Shown one piece after another: positions 1,384-40,382 of a stretch of 58,556 nt of DNA (positions are counted from its first letter, which is position 1; every line of letters begins with the position of its first letter). This DNA comes from a virus. Taxonomy: Duplodnaviria > Caudoviricetes. The translations under genes and the position numbers were made by a program. The notes under the pieces are model-generated. The model saw nothing but the letters and a program-made list of their open reading frames with translations. It had not been told where the DNA came from and searched no databases. The DNA is taken from positions 1 to 58,556 of IMG/VR virus record IMGVR_UViG_3300042363_000211; one strand, 5' to 3'.

Positions 1384-1937
1384 GTCAGGTATGCCACTCC
1401 TGCGAATGGGAGGCTGAAACGAAGAACAAGGTTGTTCTCGTTCGTATGATCAACATCGCCGTAGACCATCGTGTTGGATGTGTCAAATACTGCAACAGCT
1501 GCTGGTTTCGTCTTGAGTCCGTGGGCGATTGTCCACGTGTCCGAAGGGGTTCCCTGATCGTGCCTGTGTCGAATCTTCTGTGCAACCCATGTCTCTGTTG
1601 ATTCCTCATACATGAGAACTTCTTGATCGTCAGGGCTTGGCACCACGACGTCTTCAATGTTGTCAAGATTAAATTGACTTGCTGAAAGGGTTATGAACCC
1701 TCCCCATCCGCCAGCCGTCTTAGGACCATAGAGATTACTAAGGGCTTCGTTGAAGAAGAAGTCACCAATTCTACCGATTGAGTTAGAAGGGACACCAGTT
1801 CCTGTGATGATTTGTGTTCCTGCTGGGCCTGGAAGACCTGATGTGAGGACACGGATAACATTCTGCTGTTCTTCGGTGACAATAACCCTGTTGACAACCT
1901 CATCTGTGACTGTGATTCTGTTGTCGTTCATACTCAT
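1380..1937 (-). CDS. Tail fibre-associated structural protein
   Basis: GLPGPAG and GTGVPSNSIGRIGDFF...LYGPK..GGW segments; LDNIEDV..PSP repeat; C-terminal WTIAHGL...P.V.VFD motif seen in fibre-region proteins; lies in the fibre operon. Confidence 0.6.
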   Translation of the reverse strand: MSMNDNRITVTDEVVNRVIVTEEQQNVIRVLTSGLPGPAGTQIITGTGVPSNSIGRIGDFFFNEALSNLYGPKTAGGWGGFITLSASQFNLDNIEDVVVPSPDDQEVLMYEESTETWVAQKIRHRHDQGTPSDTWTIAHGLKTKPAAVAVFDTSNTMVYGDVDHTNENNLVLRFSLPFAGVAYLT

Positions 1938-2302
1938 CGCGTAACCTCTAGCCTTAACTCGAAATCGCCACGGATTGGCTTATTTACAATGCCTTGACCA
2001 AGAGAGATTAGTTCAATGTCGTAAACACCTGACCGTTCAATGGCGGCTGTTTGGGTGGCTGACATGGAAATAGTGATAGATCCCTCCTCCTCGTCAATGG
2101 CTATAGAGCCGTTCTCTGTCGTCAAAGTAGCGAGAACAGCCGTGGCGTAGACATCCTTACGGATCTGCATCCTCGCCGTATAGCCAGACAGGTCGTAAGG
2201 GTGAAAGACGGTCTCGTCTATAGCGTCCTGGTATTCAATAACGAAGGTACGGGTGAAGGAGCTACCCTGGTCGCAAATGATGTTGTATGTACCGGCAATC
2301 AC
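1934..2302 (-). CDS. Minor tail/baseplate-associated beta-sandwich protein
   Basis: QGSSFTRTF...YDLSGYTARMQIR...GVYDIEL pattern common in tail-fibre operons; AGGAGG upstream of a GTG start. Confidence 0.6.
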   Translation of the reverse strand: MIAGTYNIICDQGSSFTRTFVIEYQDAIDETVFHPYDLSGYTARMQIRKDVYATAVLATLTTENGSIAIDEEEGSITISMSATQTAAIERSGVYDIELISLGQGIVNKPIRGDFELRLEVTR

Positions 2303-3006: not shown

Positions 3007-4392
3007 CTAACTATAAGTAATGCTGTCGGCGTCCTCTGCCCATGAATACGAGTACGTGCCTGTGAATCTCATGTCGCCAACGAGATAGTTGTCGTTATAC
3101 CAACCTGTGCCAGTAATTCTGAGTCCGAAGTTTCCAGATCCAGATGTTGACCTAGATCCTGTGAATGGCTTCGGGGCGGCGTTGTTTGTAAACACTGAAA
3201 GAGTCCCGTTAAGCATCCAGTTAACTTGCCTAGTTGAACTTGTGAGGTTACCCATTGACGACGCGCCCGTACCACCAATCGTCACACCCCTGACATAGAT
3301 GGTTGTGTAGTTAAACGCCGATGAAGGGTTGTCGTAATACTCGCCACCATTCACAAAGGTGTCGGTCTGAAACCCGAAATACCCAGAGTCATAAGCGTCT
3401 GTTTGTGATCCAGCGTTCCTGCCTGTGTCAACATAGGCGTTACGGGACTGTCCGTACTGTGTTCCAGCTCTGCGCGATGTTACGTAATACCAGTTGTAGA
3501 GGCTTGATGGGCCTACATACTGAGACCAAGTAGTGGTGCCTGCTGCGACTGTTGCGGTGTGATCCCAAACGTATGATCCAAAGTTGAACTTGTACACATA
3601 ATACTCATCAGCGTGGGTGGCGGCATCCCAAGAAAGGTTTACTGTGTTGTGACCCGAAACGGAAGCATTTAATGTTCCTGGGCCGCCAACATTTGCTGTA
3701 GTAGTGGCACTGAAAGAAGCGCCAGCAGAAGCAGCTCCGGTTGTGTCTATCGTGTAAATCGTGTATGTGTGCGCCGTATTCACGCCAAGGCTGCCAACTG
3801 AAGTTGACGTTCCTGTTGCGCTCTTAATGTATGTTCCGCCTTCGTAAATATGATATGAAGACCTATCGCCAGATGTTGATGCTGTCCATGACAGGTCAAT
3901 CTGGTTGGGGTTTGGAGAACTTGCTGACAGTCCAGTCGGAGCAGCGGGAACGCTATTTGCTGTAGTTATGGCGTGTGTCAAATCACCAACGCGACCACTT
4001 GCGTTAACGACCCTTACCCCAACTGTGTATGCGGTTCTTTCAGAAAGACCATTCCATGTCTTGGTTCGCAAATCTGCATTAGTGGAATCATCTCCCCATG
4101 TAGCTCCACCGTTAGTGGTGAACTGGTACTTAACGAAACCAAACATTGCTGGCTGAGTCCATGTGAGAGTGATTGACGATGTATCAACTGCATAGGCAGC
4201 TGTTGAGCTGGACGCAAAGACAGGTGGCGGAGCGTAGTTATCCCACACAACAGTCCATGTTGATGCGCCAGTCTTGACCTGCACAAGAGCCACATCAGCC
4301 CATGTTGATGCGCCAGTCTTTACCTTGATTTCTGGAGTGAGGTTAGACACCTCATCCCATGTCACAGAATCTTTCTTTACATAGATTGCCAT
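3007..4392 (-). CDS. Fibronectin type III repeat minor tail protein
   Basis: Three FN3-like units (SITLTWT...GLSERTAYTVGVRVVN; PAAPTGLSA...IDLSWTAS...YTIYTID; VNLSWDA). Confidence 0.8.
   Translation of the reverse strand: MAIYVKKDSVTWDEVSNLTPEIKVKTGASTWADVALVQVKTGASTWTVVWDNYAPPPVFASSSTAAYAVDTSSITLTWTQPAMFGFVKYQFTTNGGATWGDDSTNADLRTKTWNGLSERTAYTVGVRVVNASGRVGDLTHAITTANSVPAAPTGLSASSPNPNQIDLSWTASTSGDRSSYHIYEGGTYIKSATGTSTSVGSLGVNTAHTYTIYTIDTTGAASAGASFSATTTANVGGPGTLNASVSGHNTVNLSWDAATHADEYYVYKFNFGSYVWDHTATVAAGTTTWSQYVGPSSLYNWYYVTSRRAGTQYGQSRNAYVDTGRNAGSQTDAYDSGYFGFQTDTFVNGGEYYDNPSSAFNYTTIYVRGVTIGGTGASSMGNLTSSTRQVNWMLNGTLSVFTNNAAPKPFTGSRSTSGSGNFGLRITGTGWYNDNYLVGDMRFTGTYSYSWAEDADSITYS
4255..4320. repeat. 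21-bp exact direct repeat x2, encoding KTGASTW twice
   Basis: ccatgttgatgcgccagtctt at 4255-4275 and 4300-4320 (45-bp period). Confidence 0.9.
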
Positions 4393-4401
4393 GAGCTCGT
4401 C

Positions 4402-5805
4402 CTAATAGGTAATCCAGATGTCGCCGACGGCTCCTTGACCGCCTGTCGGGGCTGTTCCGTTTGATACCCAGACACCTTTGGCAGACGGCGCACTGTTGGC
4501 CGTTCCTGCAGCCCACAAAGCGTTTCTCCATGTGCTCCCTGATCGGTAGTACAGAAGAGCGTTGGTTGTATCAACACTCAAGTTTCCGTCAGATACGGCA
4601 GATGATGGTGTTCCTGCACTAGTGAAAGAGATACCACCGTTTACGGTGACACCAGAAGCACCCATCGTGAGGTTGGCAATTCCTGTTCCTGCGCCGTTGG
4701 GGTTGGGAACAAACGAAAGACCATCTGCGTTACTGAATGCCAAACCACTAGAGGCTTTAATGACATCGGTAGCAAGCTTTGCTTTACCAACTGATGCGTC
4801 CTTAATCCTCAATGCGTTGGTTGAGATTTCAATCGTTGTTCCATCAACATTGACAGAGAGACCGTTTGTTGTGTCAAACAGTACTGACCCGGTTGCCTTT
4901 ACGATGTCTGTTGAAAGTTTCGTCTTACTGATCGAGCCAGCAAGCATTGCATTGGTTACACCAAGAGCCTTGACTCTCAAAGCATCGGCTGATGTTTCAA
5001 TACTTGAGCCGTCGGTATTGACCGAAAGGACTGTTCCTGCACCACCTGATAGTCCGTCGCCAGCAACGCTTGTTGCGAGTTGTGTAGCAGTTATTCCTGC
5101 GTCTTTGACCTTGACTTGACCTGTGGCACTCTTTGTGACGGTTGAGTCATCTACCGAGACGGAGAGACCTGTAACTGAGTCAAGAAGGACACCGCCATTC
5201 GTGGTGGCAACGGTGGGATCTAGCTTGCCTGGAGTGACTGCTGTAGCAGCAATCTTTCCTGTAGTGACAGCAAGGTCGTTAATCTTTCCTGTGGTCACAT
5301 TGAGGTCAAGAATCTTTGCTGTGATTACGGCATTGGCGGCGATTTGTGTAGCGCCTACAACACTTGTCCCGATTGCGTGATCATGATCCGACCTAGCAAA
5401 CGTTACTGCTGAACCTGCCGAGTTTGACCCTGATACGGTGACTGCCGAAGCGACTGGTACTGAGTGGTTGTGATCGGCACGGGCAAGCCTTGTGCTAGTT
5501 CCCTGAGGGGTTGAGGCTGTTCCAGGGGCAAGAGCGACAGCATCGGCTGATTGAGCTTTGCTGTCAACAGACACCCAAGAAGTGCCATTGTTGTAGTACA
5601 GAACTGATTCCGTTGTGTCGTACCAGAAAGATTCTGTGTACACATCACTTGTTGCTGATGTGCGCTCAGTAGTGTTTCCAACCCTGAAAGCGGCTACGAG
5701 GTTCTCAATAGCGAGGTTATCGTTCTGAAACTGGGCACGACCAAACGGGTCGTCACCAGACGACCACGTGGTAAGACCAAGCCTTGTTGTTGCTCCGATT
5801 GACAT
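4402..5805 (-). CDS. Tail fibre/spike-like repetitive structural protein
   Basis: Start corrected to ATG 5805 (AAGGAGG RBS). 10-aa AVTTGKI repeats, repeated SVNxDG.TIE...ALR.K units, AR.DH.H repeats and a C-terminal GAVGDIWI motif. Confidence 0.75.
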   Translation of the reverse strand: MSIGATTRLGLTTWSSGDDPFGRAQFQNDNLAIENLVAAFRVGNTTERTSATSDVYTESFWYDTTESVLYYNNGTSWVSVDSKAQSADAVALAPGTASTPQGTSTRLARADHNHSVPVASAVTVSGSNSAGSAVTFARSDHDHAIGTSVVGATQIAANAVITAKILDLNVTTGKINDLAVTTGKIAATAVTPGKLDPTVATTNGGVLLDSVTGLSVSVDDSTVTKSATGQVKVKDAGITATQLATSVAGDGLSGGAGTVLSVNTDGSSIETSADALRVKALGVTNAMLAGSISKTKLSTDIVKATGSVLFDTTNGLSVNVDGTTIEISTNALRIKDASVGKAKLATDVIKASSGLAFSNADGLSFVPNPNGAGTGIANLTMGASGVTVNGGISFTSAGTPSSAVSDGNLSVDTTNALLYYRSGSTWRNALWAAGTANSAPSAKGVWVSNGTAPTGGQGAVGDIWITY

Positions 5806-5815
5806 AAGTTCCTCC

Positions 5816-7462
5816 TTATGTAGTGTACTCGTGGGTGGCCACCATGCCGGCAGGCTTAGAGAGATCCACTGCTTTGAGGACGAGGTCAATAGCGAATGTC
5901 TGGGACTCCAATGTCCTGACAATCATGGTCCAGGTGCTGACAACGACATCAACGCGTTTGTTGGTAACCCAGCAAGGAATAATGCCGTACCCTTTGTCCT
6001 GAGAACCTGGAGCGGCAAGGGTGAATGACTTCGTAGTCAGCACCGAGGCCACCGTGTAGTTCTTATTCCATTCAGCATTACTAGACGAGTAAATCTCAAC
6101 GAAATCACCGACAGCCAACGCATGTGGTTCTTCTGTAGTCACCACGACATTGCCTGGTGAGTACCACGCAATTGTTCCTTTATCGTCGTACCCGTCAAGT
6201 ACTGACCTGACAGCTGCTTGGATTGATGCTTTGGTTCCTGCATGAAGACCTGTTGCTCTAGTGCGAGTGAGTTCAGCCAAGACATCTAAGGTGCTGAACG
6301 CAAGCGGGTTGTCTGACTCAAGTTCTGACCATGATGTGTCCGATATGAGTAGCGACCCGGCGACAGACGACGATTCATTGGATGCTGTCTGCGCCCATGT
6401 AATGGTTGGATCAGAAGACGTCAGAACTGTGAAGGATCCAGAGAATGTTCCAGTATGCGTTACATCAACCACGTCCCCGACAACAGGGAAATAAGCAGTA
6501 GAGCCCCCCGTTTGCGTCCCAAGAGTGGCAGTTACCGTATTGGCACTTCGCGAGAAAGAAGTAATGCTCCACACGTCATTTATTTCTGGGTCTATTTCCG
6601 TTTGTGCAGATAACCATGATTGATACGTGTCTTCAATCCAGAAGAATGGTGTTTGACCAGAAGTACCACTAGCGACACCTCTGACACCAACTAATTGAGC
6701 AAGCCAAGGCAACCATTGTTTCTTGGCTACGACATCATCAACATAGTAAGAAGGATCAACGAGTGTGGATTTGTCATAACCTGGAACACCATCTACGGCA
6801 GGTATGTAGTCAAATGCTTTAACAGCAGAAAGAATCTCATCTACCGTGAATGTCATTACATCTAAATATCGACGCAATGGTTTCATTTCGTCATCGTCAT
6901 CAATTTCAAGCATGTACGCAGGGATGCTTTGCTCAACGAGTGTGAGGAACTCATTGGGTGGATAGTCGGCCCATTTCGCCATGACAATGTCGTCAAACCA
7001 AATATTGCGATGGTAAGACTTCTCGCCTGTTTCTAGCGAAATAGTGTATGGAGATGCAAACATCCTGACAGAAGCATATTTGGCATCGCTTGGAGTGACG
7101 AAATCAACGGAAGCAATACCCCATCTGTTAGCCATAGCTTTATCGTTTGAAGAATGGGTGGCAATAACTGAACCTGATGCGTTGTAAATCAGCACCCTAA
7201 CGCCAAATGGATGTTCAGTTGTTTCGGAATAAGCACTACAGAAGGTTCTGTATCTTGTTGATCCACTGATTGCCAAAGTTCTTGTAAGCCTTATGCACAT
7301 CTCATTATCGTTCAACGATGTAACAAGAAGTGATGCTGGCTCGCTCCTAAAGTGAACGATAGATCTCTTTACTTCACAATCACCTAATACTGCTGGTTCC
7401 CAAAGACTGACAGATGTGGTCGCCTGCTGTTCTTCTAGAGAAAGCAGATTCTTAATGGTCAT
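5816..7462 (-). CDS. Baseplate wedge protein (P2 gpI-like) with inserted accessory domains
   Basis: WLPWLAQLVGV, GTKASIQAAVR and terminal KPAG motifs typical of tail protein I-like subunits; N-terminal carbohydrate-binding-like region (IWFDDI); follows the J-like gene. Confidence 0.65.
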   Translation of the reverse strand: MTIKNLLSLEEQQATTSVSLWEPAVLGDCEVKRSIVHFRSEPASLLVTSLNDNEMCIRLTRTLAISGSTRYRTFCSAYSETTEHPFGVRVLIYNASGSVIATHSSNDKAMANRWGIASVDFVTPSDAKYASVRMFASPYTISLETGEKSYHRNIWFDDIVMAKWADYPPNEFLTLVEQSIPAYMLEIDDDDEMKPLRRYLDVMTFTVDEILSAVKAFDYIPAVDGVPGYDKSTLVDPSYYVDDVVAKKQWLPWLAQLVGVRGVASGTSGQTPFFWIEDTYQSWLSAQTEIDPEINDVWSITSFSRSANTVTATLGTQTGGSTAYFPVVGDVVDVTHTGTFSGSFTVLTSSDPTITWAQTASNESSSVAGSLLISDTSWSELESDNPLAFSTLDVLAELTRTRATGLHAGTKASIQAAVRSVLDGYDDKGTIAWYSPGNVVVTTEEPHALAVGDFVEIYSSSNAEWNKNYTVASVLTTKSFTLAAPGSQDKGYGIIPCWVTNKRVDVVVSTWTMIVRTLESQTFAIDLVLKAVDLSKPAGMVATHEYTT

Positions 7463-32947: not shown

Positions 32948-33139
32948 GTGAGATTACCGCGCCGTGTCCCCCAGAAGATCAAAGACGGAATAGGAGGTAG
33001 AGCTTTCTTTGCATACCTATCCCTGATTGTCTTCGTGTTTGCCACGCCTATTGGAGTATTCATGATCAACCCATCCTACGGTTTCATCTCGCTTGGCGGT
33101 GCCTCTCTTGTTAGCGCATGGATTCTAGGGGCTGAATAA
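32948..33139 (+). CDS. Small two-TM membrane protein preceding the portal
   Basis: Two hydrophobic helices; TAATG coupling to the portal start. Confidence 0.6.
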   Translation: MRLPRRVPQKIKDGIGGRAFFAYLSLIVFVFATPIGVFMINPSYGFISLGGASLVSAWILGAE

Positions 33140-35328
33140 TGGCTTGGAATACGACCAGCAACAAGTCTGTTTCTAACGCCGGGGAGAAAGCCCTCCCTAT
33201 GGGCGCACCCATTTCTACAAACCCATCTTTCACTCAGAGGGGTTACCACGACTCGTGGGATATTGAACGGGTCTACCGAGACGGTGTACGTAAAGTTACT
33301 TGGGTCTACCGTTGTATTGATGCAATCTCTGGAAACCAAGCCCGTCTGCCAATGCTTGGGCACAAAGACAACAAGCCCGATGGTGAAATTGTCAAGGACG
33401 CCAAGGTTCTAGATCTCCTAAACCGTAGAAGTAACGTCGGCGAAGACTCCTTTGCTTTCCGTTACAGACTCTCGGCCCAATTACTCACATCAAGCCGAGG
33501 AGCGTTCGTTGAAGTCTTGCGTGGACGTGGTGGCGATCCAATCGCACTCAACCTTCTCCCACCCCAATACACATCTCCGATTCCTGATCCCAAGAAGTTC
33601 GTATCTGCCTACGAGGTAAGACTGCCGAACATGGGTATTCAGTACATCAAGCCTGAAGACGTACTGTGGTTCAAGCATCCTCACCCTCTTGACCCATACC
33701 TGTCAATGACCCCAATGGAATCAGCAGGCGTAGCCATTGAGCTTGAGACTCTCGCAAAGTTCTACAACAGAAACTTCCTCGTCAACGACGGACGCCCAGG
33801 TGGCCTTCTCGTAGTTAGAGGCGACATGGACGAAGACGACAAAGATGAACTCAGGTCTCGCTTTCGTGGAAACATCGGTAAGACCGGATCAACAACCGTC
33901 ATCGCATCCGCTGAGGGAGTTGACTATGTTGACACAGGTGCTTCACCCAGAGACGCTGCATACATTGAGATGCGCCAAATCTCCAAAGAAGAAATCCTTT
34001 CCGCTTTCGGCGTTCCCGAGTCAATCATCGGTAACGCATCAGGCAGGACATTCTCTAACGCCGTAGAAGAAACAAGAGTCTTCTGGCTTGAGACAATGCC
34101 TCAGCATCTTGAAATGCTTGCGCGTGGACTTGACCCATTGCATCCCGATCTTTATTTCGACTTTGACATCAAAGATGTGCCAGTTCTTCAGATTTCCAAG
34201 CAAGAGAAAGAAAGATTCCTCATGCAGGAGTTCGCTAGTGGTCTTATCACCGCCAACGAATACCGAACAGGAACTGGTCGCAAATTGGTTGACTCAGAAC
34301 TTGCCGATGCAATGTTGGCAAGCCCGAACCTTGCACCAATCGGTAACACCGAGAAGAAGATGGAAGCACCTCCTCAGCCAGGAATGATGGGGCCACCGCC
34401 AGCTGGCGAGCCTGCACCAGAACTTGGACAAGAAGCAGCCATGGGTGAACAAGCAGGAGAGGCTCCTCTTGAAGAAGGAGTCACTACACCTGATCAAGGC
34501 GTAGCTGCTGACACAATGCTTTCAGCATCAACATCGATCGGTAAATGGGGGACCAAACAAGCACCCGAGAACAACGCAGAAGACGGTTGGGATACCAAGG
34601 AACTTGATGATGCCGATAGGTGGGCCGAGATTCTTGACTCAAACCTAGAGAGGTTCTTTGATCGTCAACAGCGAGTCGTGATGGAGAAGTCTGACGGAGC
34701 GAAAGCGAAGAAATCCCTCATTGCGGGAACACTCACAGCAGCAATGATCTTTGATCTAGATGTCTGGAACAAACAAATGCGCGACGACATCAGACCACTA
34801 GTTAAGGCAGTTGTTGAAGACGCAATGCGCACAGCCAACGAACGTACTGGTATGCCGATGGATACTTCAGAAGAAGAAGTTGAGCAGTACATCAACGAAC
34901 AGATGTCCCGGATTGAGAAGTCAAACAATACGACCAGCGACGAAATTGGCGCAGCAATTGTTGTAGCGATGGCTATGGCTCAGGAAGATAAAGAGGAAGG
35001 CGCACCAGCCCTCAAGTCCGCTTTGGTTGCTACTTTCGTTCATCTCCTCGCCAAGAGGAAGAGGCTTATCGCCGAGCATGAATCACAGACTGCCTACAAC
35101 GCAGGAATGTGGTTTGCGGGCAAACAAGCAGGTGCAATAAATAAGACTTGGGTGACTCGTAAGGACACGAGCGTAAGAGCGACCCATAGAGAACTGCAAG
35201 GTAAGAGCATCCCTCTTGCTGACGGATTCACGGTAGGGAACGAATCATTGCGATTCCCTGGTGACCCACTAGCACCAGCAGGTTTGACAATTAACTGTCG
35301 ATGCAGACTTAGGTTTAGCGTCTCTTAA
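33139..35328 (+). CDS. Portal protein (HK97-like) fused to a MuF/gp7-like head morphogenesis domain
   Basis: WVYRCIDAIS, NDGRPGGLL, ILSAFGVP and LITANEYR portal motifs; C-terminal KTW.T..D..VR.TH...FPGDP...NCRC. Confidence 0.9.
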   Translation: MAWNTTSNKSVSNAGEKALPMGAPISTNPSFTQRGYHDSWDIERVYRDGVRKVTWVYRCIDAISGNQARLPMLGHKDNKPDGEIVKDAKVLDLLNRRSNVGEDSFAFRYRLSAQLLTSSRGAFVEVLRGRGGDPIALNLLPPQYTSPIPDPKKFVSAYEVRLPNMGIQYIKPEDVLWFKHPHPLDPYLSMTPMESAGVAIELETLAKFYNRNFLVNDGRPGGLLVVRGDMDEDDKDELRSRFRGNIGKTGSTTVIASAEGVDYVDTGASPRDAAYIEMRQISKEEILSAFGVPESIIGNASGRTFSNAVEETRVFWLETMPQHLEMLARGLDPLHPDLYFDFDIKDVPVLQISKQEKERFLMQEFASGLITANEYRTGTGRKLVDSELADAMLASPNLAPIGNTEKKMEAPPQPGMMGPPPAGEPAPELGQEAAMGEQAGEAPLEEGVTTPDQGVAADTMLSASTSIGKWGTKQAPENNAEDGWDTKELDDADRWAEILDSNLERFFDRQQRVVMEKSDGAKAKKSLIAGTLTAAMIFDLDVWNKQMRDDIRPLVKAVVEDAMRTANERTGMPMDTSEEEVEQYINEQMSRIEKSNNTTSDEIGAAIVVAMAMAQEDKEEGAPALKSALVATFVHLLAKRKRLIAEHESQTAYNAGMWFAGKQAGAINKTWVTRKDTSVRATHRELQGKSIPLADGFTVGNESLRFPGDPLAPAGLTINCRCRLRFSVS

Positions 35329-35519
35329 TAAGAGACATTGACCCTTAATGTTGCGGCTTCAGCACGGAGTTCGTCAATCACTAAGTAAAGTCTTTCGTTC
35401 TCCGCAATAAGAGCTGGCAGATCACGGACAATCAAAGTCTCGCGATAAATCCATCTGTGCGAATAATCGCTGTCCATCATGTTGCGAAGATTCTCCTTCG
35501 CCCTTTCGGATGCTTTCAC
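35325..35519 (-). CDS. Hypothetical protein
   Basis: Coupled to the methyltransferase C-terminal ORF (GTGA overlap). Confidence 0.45.
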   Translation of the reverse strand: MKASERAKENLRNMMDSDYSHRWIYRETLIVRDLPALIAENERLYLVIDELRAEAATLRVNVSY

Positions 35520-36229
35520 CAGCTTTGTTCCTCTGTTGCGTTCTTAGCCTGCACATAACGCAACCCGAACCATTCAGCAACATTAGCTACAACACCATTT
35601 CCACACATGCGGTAACGATGTGTATCGGCCATCTTGACTTCTGTTCCGTCTTCTTGGATGCCTGCTGAAGTCCAACCTTCGTCCCAGCCCATAAGAAGTT
35701 CACACTCCAACGGGGTAAGGCGCCTCACTACGAGGTTTGTTTCTTGTCCTGTCATTTCTTGTCCTCCTGAGAACACTTGTAGATGATTACTGTCTACGGA
35801 TTGATTATTTATTTGCATCTTTGCACCCATGTCGGTGGTTAAGGTTCCTACTGGGCCTTGGCTTAGCAATGTTGGCTCTTCGTATCCGACTATGTGCATA
35901 TCGTGTCCGTGCATCGCATTGAGAGTAAACGAAACCGAGCCATCATTCAAGACCGTATTGCTCTTTGATCCTTGAAAGTTCAGCATGGCGAAAGGCTCTG
36001 GAGAAACGATTGCATGAGAGGACTTTGATGCTCCAGCGCGCAACGAGTTCTTCACGCCGCTTTCAGCCCAGTTCTCTTCCCTCATAGACATTGGTTCAAA
36101 CAGATGCACGTCTTGATAGGCAATGAAGTCCGAACTGTCTCGCCCGATCCTGAGAGTCCTGTGAACTCCACTGTCATCAATCTTCTGGTTGTACCCGTCG
36201 TACTCCCACACGGTTGGTTCGTCAGTCAT
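35516..36229 (-). CDS. C5 DNA methyltransferase C-terminal part (TRD-like repeats plus motifs IX and X)
   Basis: RRLTPLECELLMGW (IX) and RYRMCGNGV (X); start set to ATG 36229 with an AAGGA RBS. Confidence 0.85.
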   Translation of the reverse strand: MTDEPTVWEYDGYNQKIDDSGVHRTLRIGRDSSDFIAYQDVHLFEPMSMREENWAESGVKNSLRAGASKSSHAIVSPEPFAMLNFQGSKSNTVLNDGSVSFTLNAMHGHDMHIVGYEEPTLLSQGPVGTLTTDMGAKMQINNQSVDSNHLQVFSGGQEMTGQETNLVVRRLTPLECELLMGWDEGWTSAGIQEDGTEVKMADTHRYRMCGNGVVANVAEWFGLRYVQAKNATEEQSW

Positions 36230-36404
36230 TATGGGATCCTTGAATCTCTGTCTGGACGATGAATATCTGAGCGTGATGAGACTGCGGTGACGGCTGAAGC
36301 GCATTGACACACAGCCCTATTTCTGTCTCGGTCGCCGAGAAAGTGTTTGCCTTGGCATCCTCACGGATTGAGTAGGCAACTGGATTATCGGGTCTCTTTG
36401 TCAT
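36222..36404 (-). CDS. Stand-alone TRD-like module of the C5 methyltransferase
   Basis: AYSIREDAKANTFS...NALQPSPQSHHAQIFIVQ resembles the variable-region units of the flanking ORFs. Confidence 0.55.
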   Translation of the reverse strand: MTKRPDNPVAYSIREDAKANTFSATETEIGLCVNALQPSPQSHHAQIFIVQTEIQGSHND

Positions 36405-36663
36405 CTTTGTTCACTATGTCGTGTGCAATCAATGGGACGTTGTTTCCACCAGTTCCCATTCGTGCGAGCAGTGCTGGGAACACATCGGGATACACACGGA
36501 AGTCGTCAGTTCTTTGACCCTCGAAACATACGACATATCCAACGGCATGGGATCCGGTTGTGTCCAATGTGTACATCGGATCACCAACTTCACCAACATT
36601 GAAACCGTTCGCTTTAGTGTTGGCTGTCCTGAGAGGAACTACTGATTCTGCGTGGTCACTCAT
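36385..36663 (-). CDS. Stand-alone TRD-like modules of the C5 methyltransferase
   Basis: GDPMYTLDTTGSHAV and FPALLARMGTGGNNVPL units; ATGA overlap with the upstream stop. Confidence 0.65.
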   Translation of the reverse strand: MSDHAESVVPLRTANTKANGFNVGEVGDPMYTLDTTGSHAVGYVVCFEGQRTDDFRVYPDVFPALLARMGTGGNNVPLIAHDIVNKDDKETR

Positions 36664-37958
36664 TCTTGATCCTGCACTACAAAGTTGGTGTTGTGCATCC
36701 CGTTCTCAGCGTTCAACGACCCTGCGTATCCAGGCATAATCCTGACTTCATCACGTTGGTTCTGTTGGAACAGTACTGGAGTCTCATTGGTGTCGTACAT
36801 GATTGCGTGCCCGCCACCCTCAGCGCGAAGCGTTGGGAAAGCCGATGTAGAAGCCTGGTGATCAAGTCCTTGTGTGTGTGAGAAACCGATTGCCTTGAAA
36901 GCTTCTTCCTGCACTACGAGGTTCTCACCCCTGCTTGAAGGAACACCACCATCGCCACCACTCCTAAGACAAGCGGCAACTTCTGGCTTAACAATCAAGG
37001 TTTCTGACCCCCCACCAAGATCCCCACCATTAGCACGGAGGGTTCCAATACCTTCGCCATACTGTGCGAACTGTGTCTGAGTAAACGGAATTGATCCGTC
37101 GTGAACTGCAAGAACAGTCGCACGTGAGTCACCACCATTATCAAAGGCATTCAGGGTCGGGCTAACAATCTGCTCTTTCCAAGAGTCGTCATCCGTGTTA
37201 GAACTTGCCCTCTTGGACTTCACCCAACTTCGGGTGTCTCCGTCGGTTCGTCCGGCTCGGTCGCTGCCAGCGTCGTCAGAGCGGTCCTTAGAGGCTCCGG
37301 AAGCTCGCGTCCCCGTCTCTCGGCTCGTCTGATGATTCCCTTGGCCGCTCTGGCGCTCAAGCAGTAACGGCGCAAGCCCTCGTGCCACGGTTCCAGAACA
37401 TCCGACAACGTAGATACGACGGCGTCGTTGGGGAACTCCGAAACGCTGGGCATCGGCAATACGCCAGATGGCTGTCCGCTTTGGTCCCACCAGGACGCCG
37501 GACTTGGCCCACTTCTGCTTAGGGGGCAACTCAACGAGTGCTCCTGTGATTCCCCACAGCACGGCAGCAAAGTCGGCTCCGTTGTTACTAGATAAGGCGC
37601 CGGGGACGTTCTCCCAGAAGATATCCGCCCCGATTTCGTCAGCGATACGACATTGTTCCCAGAAGAGTCCAGATCTTGACCCATCAAGTCCCTTACGACG
37701 TCCGGCAACGGAGAGGTCTTGGCAGGGGCTTCCTCCTGCCACAATGTCTGGGCGGTGAATGTTGTCTGTGATGAGTCGCTCACGAGTTACCTCTCTTACG
37801 TCGTTGTATATGTATGTGTCTGGCCAATGTTTCCTAAGCACCATTCGTGCCTTGGGGTCAATTTCGCAAAGTGCGACAACATCCATCCCAGCGCGTTGAA
37901 GGCCGAGATCAAGACCGCCAGCCCCACTGAACAGAGACAGAACCTTGATTCTTGTCAC
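36660..37958 (-). CDS. C5 DNA methyltransferase N-terminal part (motifs I-VIII plus TRD-like repeats)
   Basis: LFSGAGG (I), GGSPCQDLS (IV), ENVPG (VI) and PQRRRR (VIII); lacks motifs IX and X; AAGGAG RBS. Confidence 0.92.
   Translation of the reverse strand: MTRIKVLSLFSGAGGLDLGLQRAGMDVVALCEIDPKARMVLRKHWPDTYIYNDVREVTRERLITDNIHRPDIVAGGSPCQDLSVAGRRKGLDGSRSGLFWEQCRIADEIGADIFWENVPGALSSNNGADFAAVLWGITGALVELPPKQKWAKSGVLVGPKRTAIWRIADAQRFGVPQRRRRIYVVGCSGTVARGLAPLLLERQSGQGNHQTSRETGTRASGASKDRSDDAGSDRAGRTDGDTRSWVKSKRASSNTDDDSWKEQIVSPTLNAFDNGGDSRATVLAVHDGSIPFTQTQFAQYGEGIGTLRANGGDLGGGSETLIVKPEVAACLRSGGDGGVPSSRGENLVVQEEAFKAIGFSHTQGLDHQASTSAFPTLRAEGGGHAIMYDTNETPVLFQQNQRDEVRIMPGYAGSLNAENGMHNTNFVVQDQE
37220..37783 (-). 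CDS. Overprinted (+1 frame) ORF inside the methyltransferase gene; candidate accessory subunit
   Basis: 187 codons with a GAGG RBS 6 nt before GTG; STLSDVLE...RYCLSARAAKGIIRRAERRGRELP..L..AL is a motif I associate with C5-MTase loci. Confidence 0.6.
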   Translation of the reverse strand: MSDSSQTTFTAQTLWQEEAPAKTSPLPDVVRDLMGQDLDSSGNNVVSLTKSGRISSGRTSPAPYLVTTEPTLLPCCGESQEHSLSCPLSRSGPSPASWWDQSGQPSGVLPMPSVSEFPNDAVVSTLSDVLEPWHEGLRRYCLSARAAKGIIRRAERRGRELPEPLRTALTTLAATEPDEPTETPEVG

Positions 37959-38091
37959 GATTACTCCTTAGTTACATAAGCCCGATACGGACAAGACAAA
38001 TACTAGCAGTCAGGGTACCCGTAGAAAGGCCCTCTGTCTAGTAGATATTCGCGTATTCCTAGCACACTCCGATTTCCTCTAGTGGTCGCCA

Positions 38092-38433
38092 ATGGAGTAT
38101 CTTCGACGTATGGTCGCGCGGAACGAAACACAAGGTGAAGAGATATTCCCTGGGGTAACACTCTTCTCTGCGGGTCGTGAACCTTGCATTATTTGCGGTC
38201 ATCCAACAGGCGATTGTGCGTCACATTTCAATGATGAACGAGCCCTTACTGCTCCTAGGATTCAGTTCGGCGAAATAGTAAAGAAGGACAAAGAGGACAA
38301 CCCTGAGATACGGGTTGAGCATGACATCTTCAAAGAAGTTCAACTTACATCTATGACAAAGACCAGAGTTCTAGTCGCTAGAGCTGGAACATTTATCACT
38401 AAGTCGAAAGCCCAGGAACTGGGTCTCATCTAA
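38092..38433 (+). CDS. Hypothetical protein with CxxC-H-C motif
   Basis: PCIICGHPTGDC; lies upstream of the RNR gene. Confidence 0.65.
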   Translation: MEYLRRMVARNETQGEEIFPGVTLFSAGREPCIICGHPTGDCASHFNDERALTAPRIQFGEIVKKDKEDNPEIRVEHDIFKEVQLTSMTKTRVLVARAGTFITKSKAQELGLI

Positions 38434-38462: not shown

Positions 38463-40382
38463 ATGGCAATCTCAAAGGACTTCGTGTCCACCTACACAAA
38501 CAAGCAAGCACCATGGGGTTTCGGAGGACTCGGCGAAATTGTGTACCTCCGCACTTATTCGCGTGAAGTTGAAGGTCGTAAAGAAACATGGCCCGAGACA
38601 ATTGAACGTTGCATCAATGGCGCAATGAGTATCGGTGCTGCACTCACAGACGAAGAAGCGGAAACTCTCTTTGACCACATCTTCAACCTTCGCTGCTCGT
38701 TATCTGGACGCGCACTCTGGCAACTTGGCACACCACTTGTTGACAGGTTCAACGGAACAAGCCTCAATAACTGCTACTTCGTAAACGTTGAGAAAGTTGA
38801 AGACTTTGAGCTCATCTTTGACTACCTTATGCTGGGTGGTGGCGTTGGTTACTCAGTAGAACGCGCTCGCATTCACGAACTTCCAAAGGTCAAGACAGGC
38901 GTAGTAATTAACCACGAACGCACCAATGATGCAGACATTATTGTTCCTGACAGTCGTCAAGGCTGGCGCAGACTTCTTCATGCCGTACTGAAGTCATACT
39001 TCTACACAGGCAAATCTTTCGACTACTCCACAATTCTTATTCGTGAGTTTGGTGCGCCCCTGAAGACATTCGGAGGAACAGCATCTGGCCCAGGAGCGTT
39101 AATTGACGGTGTTGTTGACATCTGCAAAGTGATGGATGCTCGCGCTGGAAAGAAACTTCGTTCAGTAGACGTTCTTGACATCTGCAACATCATCGGACGA
39201 ATTGTTATCTCTGGATCATCTCGCCGTTCGGCTCAAATTGCTATTGGCGACCCTGACGACGTGTTGTTCCTTCGCGCAAAGAACTGGTCATCAGGAACAG
39301 TTCCAGCATGGCGAGCCAACTCAAACAACTCCGTCTACGCAGACTCATACGACCACATCATGTCGGAACTTTGGAAAGGATACGACGGCTCTGGTGAGCC
39401 ATACGGTCTCATCAACCGCGGCCTTGCTCGCAAAGTAGGACGTCTCGGAGAGAAGAACCCAGATCCAACCATTGACGGTTTCAACCCTTGTGCTGAGATT
39501 GGTCTCGCCGATGGAGAATCATGCAACCTTGCAACAATCTTCCTACCCAACATCACCTCCTACGAGCAAATGTCGGAAGTCAGCAGGCTCCTGTACAAAG
39601 TCCAGAAGTCAATCACATCTATGGAGTACCCATACGAGAAGACCACCAAGGCAGTTCAGAAGAATCGCCGGCTCGGTCAGTCCGTCACAGGAATCCTTCA
39701 ATGTTCCGAAGAGCAAATCTCATGGCTGTCAAAGGCATACGAAGACCTCAAGGAATACGATATTTGGTGGTCGGAACAGAATGGCATTACCCCATCTGTT
39801 CGCCTGACCACCGTACAGCCCTCTGGAACGCTCTCTCTGCTCCCAGGAGTGACGCCGGGTATCCATCCTGCATTCGCTCGTTATTACATCAGGCGAGTCC
39901 GTTTCGGTGCCGCTGATCCACTCATTGAGAAGTGTCGTAAGCGTGGATACAAGGTTGTCCCAGAAGTCGGTCTTGACGGCAGGGAAGACCACAGCCGTTG
40001 GGTTGTGGAGTTCCCCTGTGAGTCTCCTGAAGGCTCAATCCTTGCTGCCGACATGACAGCCGTAGAACAGCTTGAATGGGTGAAGAAGATGCAAACAGAA
40101 TGGGCCGACAACGCCGTATCTGTGACCGTCTACTACCGCAAGGAAGAACTTTCCCTGATCAAAGAATGGCTTGAGAAGAACTACGACAACGCCGTAAAGA
40201 GCGTCTCGTTCCTCCTCCATGCCGATCACAACTTCCCACTTCCTCCATACGAGGAAATCACTAAGGAAACCTACGAGAAGCTCCTCGGAAAGGTTGACTT
40301 CACAGTCGCCCTCCAAGACACTGTCGGTTTCGACCTTCTTGATATGGATGATTGTTCAACGGGGGCTTGCCCAGTCCGTTAA
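38463..40382 (+). CDS. nrdJ: Class II (adenosylcobalamin-dependent) ribonucleotide reductase, RTPR-like
   Basis: RTYSR, GRALW, NCYF, RRSA, NPCAEI, CNL, TVQPSGT, VSVTV and C-terminal CSTGACP; no beta subunit gene nearby. Confidence 0.92.
   Translation: MAISKDFVSTYTNKQAPWGFGGLGEIVYLRTYSREVEGRKETWPETIERCINGAMSIGAALTDEEAETLFDHIFNLRCSLSGRALWQLGTPLVDRFNGTSLNNCYFVNVEKVEDFELIFDYLMLGGGVGYSVERARIHELPKVKTGVVINHERTNDADIIVPDSRQGWRRLLHAVLKSYFYTGKSFDYSTILIREFGAPLKTFGGTASGPGALIDGVVDICKVMDARAGKKLRSVDVLDICNIIGRIVISGSSRRSAQIAIGDPDDVLFLRAKNWSSGTVPAWRANSNNSVYADSYDHIMSELWKGYDGSGEPYGLINRGLARKVGRLGEKNPDPTIDGFNPCAEIGLADGESCNLATIFLPNITSYEQMSEVSRLLYKVQKSITSMEYPYEKTTKAVQKNRRLGQSVTGILQCSEEQISWLSKAYEDLKEYDIWWSEQNGITPSVRLTTVQPSGTLSLLPGVTPGIHPAFARYYIRRVRFGAADPLIEKCRKRGYKVVPEVGLDGREDHSRWVVEFPCESPEGSILAADMTAVEQLEWVKKMQTEWADNAVSVTVYYRKEELSLIKEWLEKNYDNAVKSVSFLLHADHNFPLPPYEEITKETYEKLLGKVDFTVALQDTVGFDLLDMDDCSTGACPVR

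Follow-up and report, generated by a model that had tools for sequence, protein, structure and literature searches.

A phage cytosine-5 DNA methyltransferase locus divided into four serial reading frames, with a nested further frame under selection

Introduction

The virus record IMGVR_UViG_3300042363_000211 (Caudoviricetes; the complete 58,556-bp record, hereafter the window) carries on its minus strand, at 35516-37958, a DNA (cytosine-5) methyltransferase (C5 MTase) that is encoded not by one but by four consecutive, overlapping open reading frames (ORFs), the first of which contains within it another ORF, here called ORF X, in the +1 frame. The four-ORF structure is conserved among the relatives of the window, purifying selection acts on all the pieces, the region of ORF X is constrained in two frames at once, and ORF X recurs throughout the family. 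Our preferred reading, to which we assign a probability of about 0.58, is that the locus specifies an active phage C5 MTase made of five separately translated polypeptides from one minus-strand operon, in which ORF X would be the subunit supplying the segment that follows motif VIII, and in which a series of short cassettes resembling target recognition domains (TRDs) would form a multispecific array.

Results

The four serial ORFs were examined individually. ORF1 (36660-37958, minus strand; 432 amino acids, GTG start) contains motifs I-VIII, a linker and five cassettes centered on a TL-type dipeptide. ORF2 (36385-36663, minus strand; 92 amino acids, ATG start) consists of cassettes only, and its start overlaps the stop codon of ORF1 by four nucleotides, as ATGA. 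ORF3 (36222-36404, minus strand; 60 amino acids, ATG start) has a single cassette and overlaps ORF2 by 20 nucleotides, while ORF4 (35516-36229, minus strand; 237 amino acids, ATG at 36229) overlaps ORF3 by eight nucleotides and comprises four cassettes followed by motif IX, VVRRLTPLECELLMGW, and then motif X, RYRMCGNGVVANV. An earlier reading of the window, made from the sequence only, had described four minus-strand ORFs with overlaps of 4, 20 and 8 nucleotides, and an ORF listing reproduced these coordinates exactly. It had also placed motifs I-VIII in the first ORF and motifs IX-X in the last, in agreement with the Pfam profile PF00145, positions 1-164 of which match residues 4-190 of ORF1 (E 1.6e-36), and positions 269-316 of which match ORF4 (E 8.8e-5; 22.5 bits at a cut-off of 22). 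ORF1 is, indeed, the large domain of a C5 MTase, i.e., the S-adenosylmethionine-binding and catalytic part, with the signatures FxGxG, PCQ, ENV and QxRxR, and can be aligned to M.HhaI and M.HaeIII across motifs I-VI and VIII. Residues 168-217 of ORF4 align with motifs IX-X of the Dcm-like structures in PDB entries 3lx6 and 3me5. Two PHROGs annotated "DNA methyltransferase" were matched, namely PHROG 116 by ORF1 (E 4.7e-60) and ORF4 (E 2.8e-15), and PHROG 16528 by ORF2 (E 3.2e-6) and, again, ORF4; in Pfam, neither ORF2 nor ORF3 had a match. The usual monomeric form, with all motifs in one polypeptide, is thus absent here, the motifs being divided between ORF1 and ORF4 with two ORFs between them.

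For comparison, a clade was defined as the window plus six IMG/VR contigs that were retrieved with ORF1 at 73-95% identity; since two of the contigs, L002 and L003, are the same in the ORF1 coding sequence, the clade holds six distinct sequences. A second IMG/VR scan with ORF4 as query returned the same six contigs only. The sequence-only reading had suggested inspecting the read support at the junctions and the split points in related phages, and both comparisons came out in its favor. In two independent sequencing runs, X4 and X5, contigs span each of the three junctions and show no difference there, and the four methylase ORFs are found in 7/7 clade sequences, with ATG or GTG starts that overlap or abut the preceding stop, mostly behind motifs of the Shine-Dalgarno (SD) type; split points and cassette content vary among the six relatives. 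Against the relative L001, for which the synonymous divergence (dS) was 0.37-0.79, the ratio of nonsynonymous to synonymous divergence (dN/dS) was 0.046 for the cassette part of ORF1, 0.046 for ORF2, 0.044 for ORF3 and 0.107 for ORF4. These values imply that all the pieces, including the two small ORFs, are coding and constrained. Against the other relatives dS was mostly saturated (approximately 2.4-2.5 where it could be estimated), with dN of 0.09-0.45. The end of ORF1, following NTNFV.Q.QE, is conserved in the clade (L004 differs), as is the start of the last ORF, (M/V).D..YD.YN. A break after GTGGNNVP..HD is shared by the window, L001, L004 and L005, whereas in L002, L003 and L006 the two ORFs are joined in frame; a break after HHAQIFIVQ is found in the window, L002, L003 and L006, and the ORF of L001, L004 and L005 continues at this point through one more cassette. 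Overall, the split is neither a sequencing error nor a sign of decay.

ORF X (37220-37783, minus strand) has 187 codons, begins with GTG in the +1 frame, and lies wholly inside ORF1. An SD-like GAGAGG (37790-37795, minus strand) is found 6 nucleotides upstream of this GTG, and the string AGAGAGGTAAC.CGTGA, comprising the SD and the GTG, is kept in 6/6 distinct clade sequences; the frame is open for 185-191 codons in all seven. The variability of main-frame third positions is 0.67 before the overlap with ORF X and 0.90 after it, and drops to 0.11 in codons 120-199, where only 9/80 third positions vary as against 203/239 in the flanks (p = 1.5e-33). The reverse is seen in codons 200-231, where first positions vary in 21 of the 32 codons and third positions in 5 (p = 9e-5), and 24/31 codons are invariant when read in the X frame, compared with 10/31 in the main frame. 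The segment of ORF1 constrained in both frames covers alignment codons 120-232 (37251-37586, minus strand), with third-position variability of 0.11-0.16. The same third-position dip recurs in the sets of Pseudomonas and Magnetospirillum-like homologues. The X frame is under selection, and its translation is suggested by the start signals, which were also looked for in the wider family. For this purpose we used a viral survey of 79 IMG/VR homologues, taken from the best 80 of 573 confirmed stretches bearing the main-frame patterns WENVPG[AV] and G[VL][AP]QRR[RK]R[VIM]. An SD-like motif with a start codon precedes the conserved core in the X frame in 73/79 of these loci, versus 13/79 for the third frame.

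A profile of ORF X matches the +1 frame in all 79 viral loci, and in 37 of 39 bacterial loci, with two contig-edge fragments as the exceptions; the bacterial scan used a tighter alignment of ORF X relatives, the first alignment having been too divergent. Among eight named phage methylases, picked by main-frame similarity, ORF X is found in seven, including P1 dmt; in the eighth, from a Ralstonia phage and devoid of the LFE linker, the only part of ORF X present is that forced by motifs IV-VIII. A database search with the ORF X alignment retrieved 2021 proteins at E <= 0.001 among 8000 scored. None of the best 120 listed (146-325 amino acids) has a name beyond "hypothetical protein", and the cluster listings of ten X-like proteins from NCBI sources held no informative name either. 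Neither Pfam nor the PHROGs contain a family for ORF X, a translated search of plasmids (tblastn) gave no match, and comparison with PDB sequences returned nothing meaningful (best E 0.5 for the single sequence and 1.6 for the profile, both with unrelated proteins).

Three viral loci divide the enzyme between the two frames in other ways. In L138 (ORFs at 3998-4744 and 4341-5510), ORF X, five cassettes and motifs IX and X constitute a single +1-frame ORF. In L132 (3953-4819 and 4005-5312), ORF X likewise runs on through cassettes, motif IX and motif X, and the +1 frame also has cassettes opposite an insertion in the main-frame N-terminal domain. In L130 (3971-5182 and 4146-5090), the main frame reads motifs I-VIII, cassettes and motif X, and only motif IX is in the X frame. 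Since motif IX, or motifs IX-X, can be read only in the X frame of these three loci, a complete enzyme there requires translation of that frame.

Two further observations were made on X-like ORFs. In phage P1 (NC_005856), a 163-codon X-like ORF lies in the +1 frame of dmt at 1778-2266 (plus strand; hidden Markov model (HMM) of ORF X, E 2.8e-43), with a candidate start MQLTT behind GTGGAGCT; the annotation of NC_005856 has no nested gene in dmt. Some database ORFs join ORF X in frame to motifs I-IV (P0016, P0021), to an HNH endonuclease domain (P0005) or to TL cassettes (P0009, P0013, P0017, P0020), and may be frameshifted genes or real fusions.

The C-terminal part of ORF X (approximately residues 108-175; ~37259-37462, minus strand) reads SEFPNDAVVSTLSDVLE...RRYCLSARAAKGIIRRAERRGRELPEPLRTAL, whereas its N-terminal two thirds are predicted to be disordered. 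By hhalign, this C-terminus was placed on the segment following motif VIII in the MTase of Bacillus phage SPbeta, WPLQDTVTKRLREILEDFVDEKYYLN... (residues 250-289, P 0.0079), and on AQRVTLAQLLDPMVEAKYILTP of E. coli Dcm (residues 305-326, P 0.058); the window's own ORF1-4 gave no match in the same comparison (P 0.75-0.79). From this placement, part of the small domain appears, at the level of sequence, to have been displaced into ORF X. The alignment between L138 and SPbeta begins exactly in the post-motif-VIII segment. In complex prediction, the combination of ORF1, ORF4 and ORF X exceeded the mark, which 58/80 solved complexes and 2/110 mismatched pairs reach, with ipSAE values of 0.61, 0.61 and 0.62 against 0.14 for the best control, a contact agreement of at least 37%, and a predicted local distance difference test score (pLDDT) of at least 46 for the partners. 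In the predicted interface, residues 108-131 and 137-142 of ORF X contact residues 166-176 and 200-203 of ORF1, i.e., the region of motif VIII and the beginning of the linker, as well as residues 165-179 of ORF4, the motif IX helix. The modeled position is where a post-VIII segment would be expected, and the model is in line with physical assembly of the pieces; the pass may also reflect a likeness to the intramolecular contacts in solved single-chain MTases.

Turning to the cassettes, those of ORF1 are SPTLNA, IGTLRA, AACLRS, FPTLRA and AGSLNA; ORF2 has MYTLDT and FPALLA, ORF3 has VNALQP, and ORF4 has HRTLRI, KNSLRA, SFTLNA and VGTLTT. All 12, which had been named in the sequence-only reading, are recovered by the pattern [TSCA]L[RNTDQLAS][ASTPIQ], written after the cassettes had been seen. 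The pattern occurs 13 times in 519 residues, compared with 1.18 +/- 1.04 in composition shuffles, none of which reached 13 (0/5000), and with 1.66 matches per 505 amino acids in the other long ORFs of the genome. The window has, as 12 TRD-like cassettes, the tandem arrangement between motifs VIII and IX that characterizes multispecific phage C5 MTases. In 51 single-chain viral homologues the matches numbered 0-6, most frequently 2 and 3, against 13 in the window, so that the array of the window is about twice that of its single-chain relatives. The suggestion that the cassettes are akin to the TRDs of a characterized multispecific phage methylase gained support from alignments of family members: the variable region of the SPbeta MTase aligns to L138 over 150 amino acids with 35% identity (E 2.4e-7) and to L108 with E 7e-4, and the SPbeta TRD core FTVNTIDRHGV agrees with the family's FTLNTIDRHAV in 9/11 positions. 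Judged by sequence, this supports the view that cassettes and SPbeta TRDs are modules of one kind, and each cassette may set a separate target. Whole-cassette insertions and deletions change the cassette content between relatives and between samples. In runs X10 (DNA) and X11 (RNA library), for example, an L001-like variant has cassette-sized replacements (102 nucleotides for 9, and 208 for 79) in addition to an 18-nucleotide insertion.

The extent of splitting was then compared across the family. In 37 bacterial loci, representing Pseudomonas, Magnetospirillum, Azospirillum, Bifidobacterium and others, the main-frame ORF is mostly about 1000-1950 nucleotides long, the shorter ones comprising two frameshifted Bifidobacterium loci and two at contig edges. 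Where inspected, the bacterial homologues are single chains whose linker is the same, whose cassette types are shared, and whose motifs IX and X are canonical. Seven of the 79 viral homologues end at a contig edge; the 72 that could be assessed comprise 50 with a single ORF, 19 with a separate C-terminal ORF, and 3 with a nested ORF that runs into the C-terminal motifs. Two-piece splits, with 22/72, are thus common in the family, and in all 19 loci with a separate ORF the spacing between the N- and C-terminal ORFs is at most about 520 nucleotides. The clade of the window is the most expanded and most fragmented form in the sample. The proposal of separate, translationally coupled and selected pieces stands as far as the four ORFs are concerned (7/7 sequences; dN/dS 0.04-0.11), although it had overlooked both the nested ORF X and the commonness of two-piece splits.

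Some individual loci deserve mention in their own right. In Mycobacterium phage Omega (L046), the adjacent coding sequences gp127 and gp128 both carry the annotation "DNA methyltransferase" and together make up one C5 methylase of this family, gp127 being its N-terminal and gp128 its C-terminal half; an X-like ORF (E 6.6e-46) is located inside gp127. A second match to the C-terminus of ORF4 (residues 168-234) occurs in L004 at 6091-6261, downstream of the first methylase, and possibly belongs to a second C5 methylase gene. In L033 and L035 (Bifidobacterium moukalabense) the main-frame N-terminal domain is broken over two frames, representing either a frameshifted copy or another partition.

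Discussion

We propose the following course for the expression and action of the enzyme. A single transcript would start from the divergent region near 37959-38091. ORF1 would be translated from it, and ORF X would be initiated in the +1 frame at its own internal SD and GTG, while ORF2, ORF3 and ORF4, and perhaps a 64-codon ORF that follows, would be translated by stop/start coupling. ORF1, as the catalytic large domain with five cassettes, and ORF4, with four cassettes and motifs IX-X, would together reconstitute the enzyme, ORF4 docking back as in M.AquI. ORF X would supply the post-motif-VIII segment (FP..TL..LE..KY.LS.K-helix) that the family has lost from its main frame, and would connect ORF1, at its motif VIII region, with the motif IX helix of ORF4, in the way of the M.EcoHK31I beta subunit. 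Cassettes of the small ORFs, as well as those present in cis on ORF1 and ORF4, would alternate in the TRD position and thereby generate several specificities. Most likely, several short targets would be methylated, and the phage DNA would be protected from several host restriction systems. TRDs acting in trans, multispecificity and a role against restriction are suggested by homology and by the phage context, and ORF X is probably an obligatory subunit.

A broader proposal, which we put forward tentatively and at slightly less than even odds, extends this to the large family of phage and prophage C5 MTases with more than 2000 clusters of X-like ORFs, P1 dmt included. ORF X would be an obligatory, separately translated subunit throughout, the modules (post-VIII segment, TRDs, motif IX and motif X) would be variously shared between two overlapping frames, and the clade of the window would be the five-polypeptide extreme, in which TRD subunits are gained, lost and recombined. 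In the full-text literature, the coverage of which omits most subscription journals, neither a nested ORF of family-wide occurrence nor a C5 methylase split four ways was found to be described.

Several results weigh against the five-polypeptide interpretation. The openness of the +1 frame is not significant by itself, as 766 of 5000 synonymous shuffles of the window gave an ORF of at least 188 codons, and up to 2001 of 5000, for L004, attained the length observed; openness was therefore dropped as an argument. The HMM scores of ORF X are partly forced by main-frame homology, since homologous genes, translated in the alternative frame, were the source of the profile. Taken singly, the hhalign matches to SPbeta and Dcm are weak, and AlphaFold2 (AF2) predicted ORF X alone to be mostly disordered (mean pLDDT 59), with confident helices at residues ~126-173 only. 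The cassettes of ORF4 were not folded by AF2 either (mean pLDDT 43 for ORF4 and approximately 30 for the cassettes). The window's own cassettes match the SPbeta TRDs over 7-10 residues only, the best match being PTLRAEGGGH to SPbeta PTLTTMGGGH, which has 7/10 residues in common and, at E 0.5, is not significant. Junctions 2 and 3 move or fuse among the relatives and most homologues (50/72) are single chains, from which it follows that splitting may be tolerated rather than useful. Lastly, 4-bp palindromes are avoided in the window as a whole, with observed/expected ratios of 0.27 for TCGA, 0.43 for CCGG, 0.45 for ACGT, 0.52 for AGCT and 0.58 for GGCC; as TCGA, CCGG and GGCC are still avoided, restriction pressure at these sites has clearly not been removed by methylation.

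Some of these results can be accommodated by another form of the enzyme, which we regard as unlikely yet deserving of some weight. Its core would consist of ORF1, ORF X and ORF4, the cassettes would be repeats of one large small domain that binds DNA with low specificity, and ORF2 and ORF3 would be accessory or regulatory. Such an arrangement would fit the single-chain homologues, in which all the cassettes are in cis, the unfixed positions of junctions 2 and 3, the lack of an independent cassette fold in the AF2 models, and the resemblance of the window's cassettes to SPbeta TRDs at the motif level only. However, it does not readily explain why purifying selection on ORF2 (0.046) and ORF3 (0.044) is as strong as elsewhere, or why these two ORFs are made of cassette types that are found in cis in relatives; moreover, the family cassettes are homologous to SPbeta TRDs, to which separate targets are ascribed in a review (PMC12707154). 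That we are dealing with an assembly artefact, or with a frameshifted pseudogene in decay, has a practically negligible probability: the intact single ORFs of the bacterial homologues might suggest it, but the four-ORF structure is kept in six contigs at 73-95% identity, the junction sequences are identical in other runs, every piece has a dN/dS of 0.04-0.11, and a start codon is retained at each junction.

The remaining alternatives concern how, or whether, the second frame is expressed. ORF X could be untranslated, the low synonymous variation having another cause, for example RNA structure, recombination, or a sweep that recently affected this segment of the catalytic domain, and it is true that the +1 frame is often open by chance, that ORF X alone is predicted to be largely disordered, and that its homologues have neither names nor a Pfam domain. 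We give this little credence, given that the periodicity switches to the phase of ORF X in codons 200-231, that SD and start are found in the X frame in 73/79 loci against 13/79, that three loci read motif IX or motifs IX-X in the X frame only, and that the C-terminus of ORF X resembles the canonical post-VIII segment missing from the main frame; an experimentally established precedent is also at hand in the beta chain of M.EcoHK31I, as described in PMC2836561. Little credence, likewise, is given to programmed frameshifting, whether at the junctions or as a +1 shift at motif VIII into ORF X, that would give long active fusion proteins. Every junction is a short same-strand overlap, a +1 shift after motif VIII in type-B loci (L138) would restore the canonical order of domains, and P0016 and P0021 are fusions of motifs I-IV to ORF X. 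Nevertheless, joining the frames at junction 1 would take a -1 shift in the window and L001 and a +1 shift in L002, L005 and L006, the downstream ORFs all have an ATG or GTG start, in most cases preceded by an SD-like motif, and ORF X has a conserved SD and start of its own. In addition, the residues of ORF X upstream of the motif VIII overlap (main codons 120-199) are also constrained, and in the window ORF X ends at a stop codon, such that a shifted product would be devoid of TRDs and of motifs IX and X. The five-polypeptide reading thus remains the one we prefer.

The individual features of this arrangement have counterparts in known systems. The beta chain of M.EcoHK31I, from E. coli HK31, has 176 amino acids, and ORF X is like it in being nested, in its similar size (187 amino acids), and in having a poorly conserved N-terminus. 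The beta chain is encoded wholly in another frame inside the alpha chain, and both chains are needed, according to PMC2836561; its N-terminal 40-70 residues are described as less critical in PMC2836561 and PMC3404938. The nested other-frame polypeptide, a feature of that enzyme, is represented in the window by ORF X. Unlike M.EcoHK31I, the window has motif IX in the main-frame ORF4, and ORF X carries the post-motif-VIII segment, the likeness lying in gene layout. The relative L130, in contrast, has exactly the published M.EcoHK31I partition, the main frame encoding motifs I-VIII, the TRD and motif X, and the other frame motif IX. It is to be noted that M.EcoHK31I is described as a component of a restriction-modification system with one target, whereas the enzyme of the window comes from a phage and has about 12 cassettes.

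M.AquI is broken in the variable region, with motifs I-VIII plus a portion of that region in one polypeptide and the rest with motifs IX-X in the other, as stated in PMC3404938. ORF1 and ORF4 have a break of this type; unlike M.AquI, the window has four consecutive pieces, two of which are cassette-only, plus the nested ORF X. The C5 MTases of the Bacillus phages SPbeta, SPR and phi3T have tandem TRDs of the TL type between motifs VIII and IX and serve in phage self-protection, as summarized in PMC12707154. The SPbeta cores SPTLTTMGGGH and FTVNTIDRHGV resemble FPTLRAEGGGH and SFTLNAMHGHDMHIV of the window. The SPbeta enzyme, however, is one chain of about 440 amino acids (open frame, 453 amino acids) with two visible TL/TV cores and the post-VIII segment in frame, whereas in the window 12 cassettes extend over four ORFs and the post-VIII segment is in a nested frame. 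The C5 domain of P1 Dmt and the phage and prophage methyltransferases of PHROG 116 belong to the same family as the window enzyme, sharing the linker, the cassettes and the C-terminal motifs IX-X, but P1 Dmt is a single chain fused to an N6-adenine methylase domain. The window combines features of the M.EcoHK31I, M.AquI and SPbeta types and takes them further, with four ORFs in series, about 12 cassettes and a nested ORF for the post-VIII segment.

The locus shows how far the fold of a monomeric enzyme can be broken and yet be kept by selection, in this case into four serial pieces and one nested piece. The nested gene is left out by standard annotation, and its omission may, we infer, explain why some cloned C5 methylases of this family were inactive or hard to characterize. 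The system also offers a natural setting in which to consider the number of TRDs per catalytic core and the provision of TRDs in trans, which bears on the escape of phages from restriction and on the engineering of targeted methylases. For the evolution of overlapping genes it provides a test case on the scale of a family, in which the second frame appears to hold a displaced piece of an enzyme and not a novel protein. Should the family-wide role of ORF X be true, few conserved same-strand overlapping genes of bacteria and phages would be more widespread, and the family would be a naturally modular specificity system.

Genomic setting and additional observations

The methylase genes, on the minus strand, are flanked by two plus-strand genes, namely the portal gene (33139-35328; PHROG 2662, E 3.9e-99) and that of a ribonucleotide reductase (38463-40382; PHROG 367, E 3e-140). 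A promoter and terminator scan was uninformative, with 2 promoter-like sites against 2.6 expected. When the region was compared by blastn with 50,697 phage records, no close relative was retrieved, and the matches were limited to five short ones at 60-80%. Near-identical or related sequence is contained in 24 sequencing runs from 21 studies, which, with two exceptions, are labeled as lake-water or freshwater metagenomes. A contig from the RNA-library run X11 covers 36012-38100, which is not proof of transcription. In the palindrome counts of the window, GCGC (0.97) and CTAG (0.95) were not avoided, and eleven 6-bp palindromes were absent.

The 64-codon ORF mentioned above (35325-35519, minus strand) begins with a GTG that overlaps the stop codon of ORF4 by 4 nucleotides, and may be a fifth coupled cistron. 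It had no match in the PHROGs, and homologous ORFs are located after the MTase in L001, L005 and L006. Its sequence has a coiled-coil-like appearance.

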